Shown here one piece after another: positions 36,492 to 44,334 of a stretch of DNA of 64,000 nt. Both the position numbers and the translations under genes were made by a program. Position 1 is the first letter of the stretch, and every line of letters begins with the position of its first letter. Origin of the DNA: Picochlorum sp. SENEW3 (taxonomy: Eukaryota); NCBI GenBank assembly GCA_034226945.1, contig CP120461.1:806001-870000 (forward strand), read 5' to 3'. The notes below the pieces were generated by a model that saw only the letters and a program-made list of their open reading frames with translations, ran no database searches and was not told the origin of the DNA.

Positions 36492-36534
36492 CATCTGGGA
36501 AATCTGAAAATAAGAAATGGACGTCCGATGTAAT
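36492..36534 (+). repeat. Left 43-bp terminal inverted repeat
   Basis: 43/43 match to the reverse complement of 42488-42530. Confidence 0.97.
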
Positions 36535-36639
36535 ACACAATTCTTCTGTCGACACACTAATTTAAGATATAAGAATTTGACGTTGATGTCCAAATGTACT
36601 ACTATTTTTATACACGGATACTGGCGTTCCTGTGCACTG

Positions 36640-36694
36640 TTTGGACGTTATTTGGACGCTATATAGACGCTATTTGGACGCTATATGGACGCCT
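36640..36694 (+). repeat. Subterminal tandem array, 5 x 11 bp (consensus TWTGGACGCTA)
   Basis: TTTGGACGTTA TTTGGACGCTA TATAGACGCTA TTTGGACGCTA TATGGACGCCT. The core TGGACG also occurs in the TIR. Confidence 0.9.
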
Positions 36695-37204
36695 CGATAC
36701 ACTACTGTACATTTACACTGAATATATAATATCTGTACTCATACATACATCTGGTATCCACAGAGAGGTGTGATGACGCACACCAGAGTAGCATTATGTG
36801 GCCACATTATGTGGAAACCTGTAGACTCTCACTGATAATAAGAAGGAGACCTACAAACACGACACATTCTCATTGTCACTCACGACCTATTACCACTGGT
36901 GTGGTCGAGGAATGGGAACCTAAGATGTTCTTCTGGTGGCAATCTGATATACCTGCTCCGCAGATTCCTCAGGCTTTTGAGCATGGCCTTGTAATCTGCA
37001 TCATTGATAACTTCCCCCACAAGTATGGCCTCAAACTACACAAACACACACGTGTATCATTAATGATGCTCGAAAATTATGTGTTGAAATATCATGCAAA
37101 CATCCCACAGCAAGGCACTCTGCTGATGAAACAATTGTGCTTTTGCACCATTGCCTCAGGCATAGCTTGTCAAAGTTCTTCTTGACAGCTCTCCTTCAAA
37201 TCAG

Positions 37205-41800: not shown

Positions 41801-42157
41801 AGGCTCAGTGATACGATGGGATCCTTTGTGACTGTGAAAGGCGATGGACACCAGCCATGGTATGCTGAGATCCTCTGCTTTGTGAGAATCACGCCTCCAT
41901 CTACCAGTGGGAGACAGGATGCAGAGGTTGCATTCGTCAGGTGGTTTACAGAGGTCAAGAAAGCTACTTTACATCCTGTCCTTGGCCTGCCATATCTCAA
42001 AGTGGAGAAGACTGTGAGACAGAGTTCTGAAGGTAACAACCAAACAGAAGTCTTCACCGATCTATGCAGAGCTGTAGATATACTCGAGCCAATTTACATG
42101 CAAAAAGACCCCAGCAACAACAGGAAATGGTTCATACACAACAGGTATGTCCGCTGA
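38898..42157 (+). CDS. Plavaka-like DDE transposase; about 6 exons, two apparent frameshifts
   Basis: N-terminal CxxC..H..C finger (CQYCGKWF...HYKGC); VYGEVAWGDW; LLPIAFYSDKT...LYPVNL...IGHIP; FYAADLLE; PDTLHTLHSG; LNTLK...HERTH; C-terminal WYAEILCFV...AFVRWF. Introns at ~39621-39686, 40352-40424, 40823-40889, ~41270-41344, ~41555-41627. Confidence 0.8.
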
Positions 42158-42348
42158 ACTTGGGGCCAACTTGCTCCATACCAGCGCAGTGGCTCGCCCC
42201 AGGGGTGCAAGTCACCTTGTACAATATGTAGAAAAGTAATCTGTAAAATAATATTTATAGTCCAAATATACTCCACTGTCCAAATCGGCTACATTTGGTG
42301 TACCTGGATTCGTGGACGCCTATCCCTACATGGACATTGCCGTTTGTG

Positions 42349-44334
42349 TCACCTGTCCGACGAATGGAAAAAACATGCCTCTATCTCGCTTTGGCCCCTT
42401 CGGACGGTGGATGGACAGATGTCATACAGGGTACTACGATAGACGTCCATGTCCACGTACACGAAATGTGTGTCCAAAGGACACTGGATTACATCGGACG
42501 TCCATTTCTTATTTTCAGATTTCCCAGATGATATTTCACCTCCAGAAGACTTGAACTTTTCACTCATCTCTCGCATGCCTCTCTCCTTTTCCTCCAGTAT
42601 CTCCTCGGCATTGTCGAGAGAGCGAATTTGATGGGTGATTTCCATGGAACAAAAGTTACTTCCACACATGGAACAAAAGTGTGCAGTCTTGGCACCATCT
42701 TGTGGCAGGGTTTCATCATGCATGGATCGAGCGGGCAATGGATCCAATGACAGGTTGAATTGATCGTTCCAACGGAATTCAAATCGTGCCCAGGATAGCT
42801 CATCGTCCCATTGTTGCGCCATTGGGTGCCTTTTTGAAAGGTCGGCTGCATGAGCAGCAATCTTGTAGGCAATCATGCCCTGTTTGACATCTTCCTTGTT
42901 GGGCAGGCCAAGATGCTCTTTTGGTGTCACATAGCAGAGTAGACTGGTCCCAAGAGCACCAATTGTGGCTGCCCCGATCGCAGACGTGATGTGATCGTAC
43001 CCAGGTGCGATATCTGTGGTGAGTGGACCAAGTGTGTAAAAGGGTGCCTCATGGCACCATTCCATCTGCTTGGCCATGTTCTCAGGAATCTTGTGAAGAG
43101 GAACATGTCCTGGTCCCTCGTTCATGACCTGAACATGCCTTTCCCAGGCTCTCTTGGTCAATTCGCCTTGTGTTAGCAGCTCTGAAAACTGAGCCTCGTC
43201 ATTCGCATCATAGATACACCCTGGTCGGAGGCCATCACCAATGGACAAGGCAATGTCATACTCGGCGCAAATGTCCAAAATTTCGTCCCAATGGGTGTAT
43301 GCAAAATTTTCTTCGTGGTTCAAAAGCATCGCTTTGGCGTGAATTGATCCGCCTCTTGAAACAATCCCTGTGAGTCGCTCCTTTGTCAATGGCACATATC
43401 TGAGCAGAACCGCTGCATGAATGGTAAAGTAATCAACCCCTTGTTCTGCCTGTTCGAGCAGTGTCTCTTTGAACAGCTCCCATGTTATGTTTTCTACTTT
43501 GCCTCCAGCCTTTTCCAAGGTCTGATAGATTGGGACAGTACCCACAGGAACAGGACAATTCCTCATAATGTATTCCCTCGTTTCGTGGATGTCAGCACCT
43601 GTTGAAAGATCCATAATGGTGTCTGCATGCCACATCGTGGCCCATTTCATCTTCTCAACCTCCTCTGAAATATCACTTTTCACAGCAGAATTACCAATAT
43701 TTGCATTCACTTTGGTGAGGAAGCGCCGTCCAATGACACAGGGTTCCAGCTCAAGGTGCCTCTTGTTTGCAGGAATGATTGCCCTGCCCCGAGCCACTTC
43801 CTCGCGAACCAGCTCTACGTCCACCTGCTCCCTCATCGCAACAAAGAGCATCTCTTCCGTGATGATCCCTTGTTTGGCATAGTACTTTTGCGTCATCACC
43901 TTGTCACCCCGCTTCTCTCGCCTGTCAACCCACTGGTGGCGGATTTTGGGGATTCCAGCCTGGACATCATTGTCATCCAGCGCAGGAGGACCCCCAGTAA
44001 AGTACGTCTCAAACACCCCAGATCCACCCGTTAAAGAAACGCGTCTATACGGGACTCGTAGAATGTCCCCGGTGCCCTCGTGCACCCTCTCGTTGTACCC
44101 AACCTCACTAGAGGGGAAGCATTCCTCAACTGTTGGAAATTGCTCCCTCTCCATTGCAACTGATGCTGTACGGAGTACATGATGTCTGGTTCTCCCTGAT
44201 AACGTCACCGGCAGTGTGGAAGGCCCACGCCGTGTCGAGAAGGCTCGTGCCCACCTGTTGGACACAGAGGAGAGCATCCTGCAGCATGCATGTACATTGT
44301 GCTCTTGCATTGTCATTGCACGACTCGAAGACAT
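42349..44334 (-). CDS. THIC: Phosphomethylpyrimidine synthase THIC; native C-terminus replaced by 60 transposon-derived residues
   Basis: [63 protein letters not shown] and the radical-SAM motif [13 protein letters not shown]. Host-derived sequence ends at 42531 (...GGEI). Confidence 0.96.
42488..42530 (-). repeat. Right 43-bp terminal inverted repeat
   Basis: ATTACATCGGACGTCCATTTCTTATTTTCAGATTTCCCAGATG, the reverse complement of the left TIR. Confidence 0.97.

Follow-up and report, generated by a model that had tools for sequence, protein, structure and literature searches.

A two-gene Plavaka-type DNA transposon inserted in the ThiC gene of the green alga Picochlorum sp. SENEW3

We analyzed a 64,000-nucleotide stretch of Picochlorum sp. 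SENEW3 DNA (contig CP120461.1, positions 806,001 to 870,000 of the forward strand; this whole stretch is called the window below, and all positions refer to it). A first-pass annotation, made from the letters alone, had described a DNA transposon in it. The element lies at positions 36492 to 42530, within the gene for ThiC (phosphomethylpyrimidine synthase), and is very probably a member of a cut-and-paste transposon family of the genus Picochlorum that is low in copy number, was recently mobile and belongs to the Plavaka lineage of DDE transposons, related to CMC/EnSpm. The proposal of a Plavaka-type, CMC/EnSpm-related transposon in a green alga was borne out by a match to the Pfam family PF18759, by defined ends and by a 3-bp target-site duplication. 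Plavaka-type two-gene elements with a 3-bp duplication in green algae are already known. What is new here is the insertion in ThiC together with an empty allele, an accessory gene whose introns are confirmed by an RNA-like contig, an antisense intron and a warning about a broken reading frame.

Ends and genes of the element

The transposon is 6,039 bp long and has a G+C content of 0.44, within the range of 0.42 to 0.48 of the window. The window was compared with contigs from several runs, among them X1, X2, X15 and X17, and with related proteins. The features of the element are as follows.

36489 to 36491, no strand: left target-site duplication, ATA, from the sequence; the empty-site letters in run X2 show a single ATA.
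36492 to 36537, plus strand: left terminal inverted repeat, starting with CATCTG; 43 nt perfect, 46 nt with one mismatch.
36640 to 36692, plus strand: left subterminal tandem repeat with an 11-bp unit, TTTGGACGCTA, in 4.8 copies, from a repeat search.
36880 to 38514, minus strand: gene 2, with exons 38514-37963, 37900-37597, 37536-37322 and 37035-36880 (including the stop), encoding 408 aa; from tblastn and translation.
38515 to 38897, no strand: spacer of 383 bp between the divergent start codons, a presumed bidirectional promoter judging from the gene arrangement.
38898 to 42157, plus strand: Plavaka-type DDE transposase gene in six exons, from tblastn of sister copies and inspection of splice sites; about 968 aa in the family form.
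38916 to 38975, plus strand: N-terminal C-x2-C...H-x3-C zinc-finger-like motif (QCQYCGKWFKSLGTQHYKGC), which aligns with C-x2-C...H motifs of relatives.
39719 to 39751, plus strand: LLPIAFYSDKT, with the candidate first catalytic Asp, from the alignment.
40040 to 40069, plus strand: VFYAADLLEY, with the candidate second catalytic Asp (D330 of the sister protein P0004, nearly invariant), from the alignment.
41108 to 41125, plus strand: HHERTH, with the candidate catalytic Glu; E in all six aligned sequences that reach this column.
42232 to 42484, no strand: right subterminal region, with inverted TTTGGAC at 42260, 42278 and 42472, plus other TGGAC(G) sites.
42485 to 42530, minus strand: right terminal inverted repeat, ending with CAGATG; pairs with the left arm over 46 nt, 98% complementary.
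42531 to 42533, no strand: right target-site duplication, ATA, from the sequence and contigs.

The 43-mer of the ends occurred exactly twice in the window, and two matches were obtained in 0 of 100 shuffles. No further site of this 43-mer or of an end 20-mer was found within the window at up to 3 mismatches, leaving the two ends only. The left terminal inverted repeat contains the palindrome GGACGTCC. Eight TTTGGAC sites are present in the element, seven of them less than 300 bp from an end; on the left, three of four lie on the plus strand, and on the right, all three lie on the minus strand. TGGACG has nine sites, of which eight are terminal. The perfect 43-bp inverted repeats starting with CATCTG, the ATA duplication, the subterminal repeats (the TTTGGACGCTA array and the terminal TTTGGAC sites) and the two head-to-head, intron-bearing genes reported by the first-pass annotation were all found. 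Its description of the element as complete holds for the structure but not for the transposase frame, which is broken twice as assembled.

The predicted introns of the transposase gene (39621-39686, 40352-40424, 40823-40889, 41270-41344 and 41555-41626) are 66 to 75 nt long, and all have GT..AG ends. Two of them, of 66 nt and 75 nt, keep the reading frame and contain no stop codon, and gene predictors therefore run through them. We take these two stretches to be introns because the corresponding residues are missing from all clearly aligned relatives, the closest homologue, P0002, among them. The open reading frame at 39692-40375 matched PF18759 ("Plavaka transposase") with an E value of 6e-10 and 39.3 bits, against a curated cut-off of 26.3. 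P0004, the 958-aa protein of a sister copy in the same genome, matched the same family at 49.9 bits and no other Pfam family at an E value of 1 or less, and 11 of 13 aligned relatives also matched it, with a best E value of 3.3e-38. In the comparison with Pfam, PF18759 was the only transposase family matched, and the six peptide motifs that had been quoted for the protein were all present in the translation in the stated order. The candidate catalytic residues, D of SDKT, D330 of AADLLEY and E of HERTH, are conserved among the 13 aligned relatives. In this alignment, D330 and E333 are nearly invariant, D-x-L-H and E-R-x-H are conserved, and a C-terminal block, W-Y-A-E...AFVRWF...P-I-Y-M-Q-x-D, is conserved as well. 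A zf-C2H2 match in Pfam was found in one aligned transposase relative. A sequence search of the PDB with the transposase profile gave no matches.

Gene 2 corresponds to the annotated protein P0050, which has the same length (408 aa) and matches at 100% in both outer exons. In run X15, a contig of 1,351 nt is missing precisely the three gene 2 introns, whose CT..AC ends read GT..AG on the minus strand. No run listed as carrying the element is on record as RNA, but this contig is RNA-like. Because this contig joins its exons, gene 2 is transcribed and spliced in another Picochlorum. The two genes are paired at three SENEW3 loci (tags 5408-5410, 3717/3718 and 1243/1244), and gene pairs were also found in Picochlorum sp. 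BPE23 and P. renovo. An AT-hook, RGRGRPPGS (38416-38442), and an acidic stretch of low complexity are present in the gene 2 protein, whose C-terminal half comprises about 220 aa. The protein matched no Pfam family, with only a sub-threshold AT-hook at E values up to 10, and the PDB sequence search gave nothing useful beyond one weak match to a designed protein. Two candidates for its family or fold were set aside as leads only. In a language-model comparison, fungal clusters of DUF6532 (PF20149) had a look-alike score of 0.94 for the C-terminal half, with just 144 to 150 shared features, too little to serve as evidence; DUF6532 is named alongside Plavaka and KDZ in one Ganoderma paper, as co-occurrence and not linkage. 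Myb-like folds reached TM values of at most 0.5 on a poor model.

Reading frame of the window copy

The window copy differs from the other copies at two points in the transposase gene: it is one base short after 39717 and one base too long at 40704. At the first site, the other copies read HPGCELLPIAFYSDKT, as found in P0004 (SENEW3), P0012 (P. renovo), P0006 (strain BPE23) and P0013 (MMETSP). At the second, these four and additionally P0010 (SENEW3) read SVKFELPTDKN. The run contigs gave a similar picture. Three of four runs (X1, X2 and X17) carry an extra A at the first indel, where X15 has no contig, and all four are without the extra base at the second. Because the frame is broken as assembled, the NCBI annotation divides the transposase between P0001, of 557 aa, and P0003, of 352 aa, by means of an invented intron. 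P0001, annotated in Picochlorum sp. SENEW3, is 100% identical to the 227-aa exon open reading frame of the window.

The two 1-bp indels could be an assembly error in a repeat, and we lean slightly to this side because of the few differences from X1, the breaks beside homopolymers in other copies and the use of Nanopore reads. Along 2,238 bp, the X1 contigs and the window are the same, and along 3,246 bp, 2 letters and 2 gaps distinguish them; the total for about 5.5 kb is two indels and one adjacent 2-letter substitution. The SENEW3 assembly was built with Nanopore reads (PMC11092101). If, instead, the frameshifts are real, the window copy is disabled and non-autonomous and would move only with the transposase of another copy. 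This possibility, which we place just short of even, agrees with the fact that both indels set the window apart from the run contigs and from the proteins of the other copies, and that the NCBI annotators had to divide the gene. The ratio of indels to substitutions relative to X1, however, is more typical of a long-read consensus error than of natural decay, and the other two SENEW3 copies are frame-broken too, each at a place of its own (P0004 in its N terminus near a G run, and P0010 near an A run). While an assembly error is slightly favored, the window copy may lack an intact transposase.

A length variant of exon 1 was also observed at 39114-39227 in contigs of X1 (depth 54) and X2 (depth 58). 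Here, 114 nt are replaced by 12 other letters, a net difference of 102 nt that is in frame and falls in the acidic N-terminal region. Therefore, at least one copy differs there.

Classification and relatives

Maize En/Spm has CACTA termini and a 3-bp duplication, and short subterminal repeats of either orientation lie close to its ends; it produces a DDE transposase and the repeat-binding protein TnpA by alternative splicing of one transcript unit. The Picochlorum element shares with this two-protein system the 3-bp duplication and the subterminal repeats. It differs in its CATCTG termini, its two divergent genes and the absence of a Pfam EnSpm match. Given the shared duplication, subterminal repeats and pair of genes, and given that some Plavaka-like rust elements were reclassified as EnSpm by Kojima (PMC12730594), an ordinary CACTA/EnSpm element rather than a Plavaka was considered. 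We regard it as very unlikely, since the termini are CATCTG and not CACTA or CAC..GTG, the sole Pfam match of P0004 at an E value of 1 or less is PF18759, and CATC termini fit PlavakaB. The PlavakaB families of Agaricomycotina are described with 5'-CATCA..TGATG-3' termini and 2- to 3-bp duplications (Kojima 2025, PMC12730594). The Picochlorum termini, CATCTG..CAGATG, agree with these in the first four bases, and two copies show a duplication of 3 bp, which the empty site confirms. Therefore, CATCT ends are expected in this lineage and not the departure for which the first-pass annotation had taken them. No profile match to KDZ (Kyakuja/Dileera/Zisupton) was found in the Pfam search, and the duplication is 3 bp compared with the 8 bp given for Zisupton in the same paper.

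Besides the CATC termini, the Picochlorum element has in common with fungal PlavakaB the range of duplication length and the match to PF18759. The fungal families differ in their hosts and in that some of them carry a gene for a TET/JBP dioxygenase; in addition, neither the C(2)C nor the H(3-4)H motif is recognizable in the Picochlorum protein. A close known counterpart by description is Plavaka-1_UTEX250, which Craig et al. (2025, PMC12636532) curated in Auxenochlorella. It is 8,841 bp long, with two genes, ends of 15 bp and a duplication of 3 bp. Both elements have a trebouxiophyte green algal host, two genes and a 3-bp duplication, and insertions of Plavaka-1_UTEX250 differ between haplotypes. 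Compared by description only, the Picochlorum element is shorter, at 6,039 bp, and has longer ends, of 43 to 46 bp. Giant Plavaka elements were reported in the red alga Bostrychia (10.1101/2025.02.11.637652); these are 17 to 19 kb long, carry three accessory genes (methylase/SET, ParB-like plus oxygenase), are massively amplified and are mostly degenerate. An Archaeplastida host and an accessory gene beside the transposase are common to both, whereas the Picochlorum element has a length of 6 kb, one accessory gene and about three copies. The suggestion of an undescribed algal family overstated the novelty. This kind of element is already known in green algae from Plavaka-1_UTEX250, and no paper describing the Picochlorum family was found. 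In the literature consulted on Picochlorum transposable elements and on Plavaka, there was no description of such a family, and Figure S3 of PMC13519894 may include Picochlorum.

A phmmer search of 1.84 billion representative proteins gave 17 relatives in all and reached no named fungal protein. The only named distant relatives came from two trebouxiophytes, Chlorella sp. A99 (at 31% identity) and Trebouxia sp. C0004 (at 25%). No relatives were found in metagenome scans (by alignment and with a single protein, tblastn) or in a scan of viral contigs. The first-pass annotation had raised the possibility of horizontal acquisition. Plavaka was first described in fungi, and a low-copy family of near-identical copies could reflect a recent transfer into Picochlorum, for example, from fungi. 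This is highly improbable, and a horizontal transfer found no support because the nearest named relatives are green algae. Furthermore, the closest homologues (46 to 49%) have the same motif set, the G+C content of the element falls within that of the window, the introns are 60 to 75 nt long, and nothing was found in viral contigs. Plavaka has been reported in red algae, chlorophytes and streptophytes, and its presence in the ancestor of Archaeplastida was inferred in the Spirogyra genome paper (PMC13519894), which makes it probably ancestral there.

Mobility and the insertion in ThiC

A contig was taken to bridge a junction when it had at least 31 letters on the shorter side. One X2 contig follows the left flank to 36491 and then reads TTTCACCTCC, which is the right flank. 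A second X2 contig starts with TCAAGACAATGGTACAT, which is the left flank, and runs into 42531. Together, the two X2 contigs are an empty ThiC site with one ATA in another Picochlorum population. In X1, which is probably the source strain, the two junction contigs, of 39.5 kb and 48 kb, are letter-perfect relative to the window and extend 28 letters into each end. A second copy in X1 has the flanks ...GGGTA|CATCTG and CAGATG|GTACAG, giving a GTA duplication, and in further runs, other flanks are joined at the same terminal base. Thus, the other copies have the same terminal bases, and the second copy also has a 3-bp duplication. The recent activity claimed in the first-pass annotation was supported in the sense of recent mobility, by the empty site, the second copy with its own duplication and the near-identical copies. 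No empty-site contig was found in X1, although contigs cannot show absence.

Contig depth was used only as a hint and not as a copy number. The X1 depth was 62 in the flanks and 177 to 178 in the element, in agreement with the three annotated SENEW3 copies; in X2, the values of 53 to 67 versus 36 hint at less than one copy per locus. Two further observations concern the copies. In X1, the depth was 230 to 279 at 38631-39293, compared with 177 elsewhere in the element, and one contig had a loose end before 38673, which suggests an extra partial copy or a variant intergenic region. In one X2 contig, 39301 is followed directly by 41757, which leaves out 2,455 nt. The shorter side of this contig has only 25 letters, and this weak indication could reflect an internally deleted, non-autonomous derivative.

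Several points weigh against the reading of a recently mobile Plavaka family. The PF18759 match of the Picochlorum protein spans just profile positions 94 to 237 of 325. C(2)C and H(3-4)H motifs are described for Plavaka and its allies (PMC12730594). The Picochlorum protein has D-P-S-Y where the relative P0030 has C-H-G-C, and eight other aligned sequences are also without Cys; it has only H-x2-H (LHTLH) and not H-x3-4-H, and the second H is not conserved. As judged from the alignment, the missing motifs are a real departure from the described Plavaka motifs. The transposase frame of the window copy is broken twice. No sense-spliced transposase RNA was found among the contigs, and the sole RNA-like contig over the gene is antisense. 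The shorter sides of the contigs have only 10 and 17 letters at the empty site and 28 at the junctions, below the 31-letter rule, although the empty-site letters match perfectly. We infer transposition itself rather than observing it directly, and the DNA-binding role of the gene 2 protein, for which no Pfam or PDB relative was found, is purely one that we infer by analogy. The crossing of each junction by just 28 letters in X1 would also allow for the inverted repeats and the ATA being an assembly artefact or chance, with ThiC not truly interrupted, but this is barely conceivable given that both junction contigs (39.5 kb and 48 kb) are letter-perfect, that none of 100 shuffles gave a perfect inverted repeat of 43 nt and that other copies terminate at exactly the same bases.

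The host gene and the antisense intron are located as follows.

42349 to 44334, minus strand: ThiC, window allele, 661 aa; PF01964, E value 5.1e-183, and translation.
41574 to 41654, minus strand: canonical intron of 81 nt, GTATGT...TTGCAG, within the element; X15 contig, depth 88.5.

The native part of ThiC extends from 44334 to 42532, and its last 60 residues (42531-42352) and stop codon (42351-42349) come from the right end of the transposon. The insertion splits the gene between the Ile and Tyr codons of the C terminus, so that GGEIYVPLS and its stop became GGEI followed by 60 foreign residues. When the flanks were joined with a single ATA, the reconstructed empty site read GGEIYVPLS and the stop. 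The ThiC orthologue P0059, which is 98% identical (12 differences in 601 residues), also ends with GGEIYVPLS. The E-(I/V/L)-Y motif that is split by the insertion was present in nearly all of the 19 ThiC C termini inspected, from 120 proteins listed. The conserved C-terminal Tyr of ThiC is thus replaced in the window allele. A TGTAA, the sequence of the green-algal poly(A) signal, is located at position 42493 on the ThiC strand, 38 nt inside the inverted end. Around ThiC and within the element, Rfam gave neither a TPP (thiamine pyrophosphate) riboswitch nor any other RNA. Elsewhere in the window, it gave a match to the C/D-box snoRNA U36a (55508-55595, minus strand; 61.8 bits, gathering score 45). 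In Auxenochlorella, a polymorphic Plavaka-1 copy adjoins THI1A/THI1B (PMC12636532, legend of Fig. S2). The presence of two such elements in thiamine-gene neighborhoods of two algae is probably a coincidence.

Over 39768-42517, an X15 contig has the sense introns of the transposase gene still in place and 41574-41654 removed. The same skip was found in P0008, a product of an MMETSP transcript that also gives P0013; in P0013, a sense intron is still present. Transcription of ThiC in the window runs toward the right end of the transposon; therefore, read-through from ThiC could be a source of antisense RNA there.

A mechanism can be proposed for the family. A transposase of about 968 aa, with an N-terminal zinc-finger-like motif, a Plavaka DDE core (FYSDKT, AADLLEY and HERTH) and a conserved C-terminal domain, would recognize the inverted ends of 43 to 46 bp and excise the element. 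Reinsertion with a 3-bp staggered cut would give the 3-bp duplication. The AT-hook protein encoded by gene 2 may bind the TTTGGAC(G) repeats near both ends and help to pair them, by analogy with TnpA in maize En/Spm. In SENEW3, the insertion of this copy separated the Ile codon from the Tyr codon at the ThiC C terminus, and ThiC now runs 60 codons into the element. If truly disabled, the window copy would depend on transposase from another copy. A set of wider ideas seems unlikely to us: that the family is transposing now in culture and could serve as a native tagging tool, that gene 2 is a distant relative of fungal DUF6532 (expanding with Plavaka/KDZ), that Plavaka is an ancient two-protein system of fungi and green algae, and that read-through from ThiC yields a spliced antisense brake, perhaps with altered thiamine synthesis.

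Species of Picochlorum grow fast, serve as production algae and have genomes that are very compact and poor in repeats. In the chromosome-scale assembly of SENEW3, the G+C content is 46.3% and DNA transposons make up 0.35% of the nuclear genome (PMC11092101). A defined, recently mobile cut-and-paste element with known ends aids annotation, the judgement of strain stability and possibly insertional tagging. Its genes are listed by NCBI as hypothetical proteins, one of them split in two. The insertion in ThiC is a natural allele with a testable effect on thiamine synthesis. For the Plavaka lineage, the element is a second, more compact example beside those recently recognized in green algae, and it shows that the combination of CATC termini with a duplication of 3 bp extends beyond fungi.

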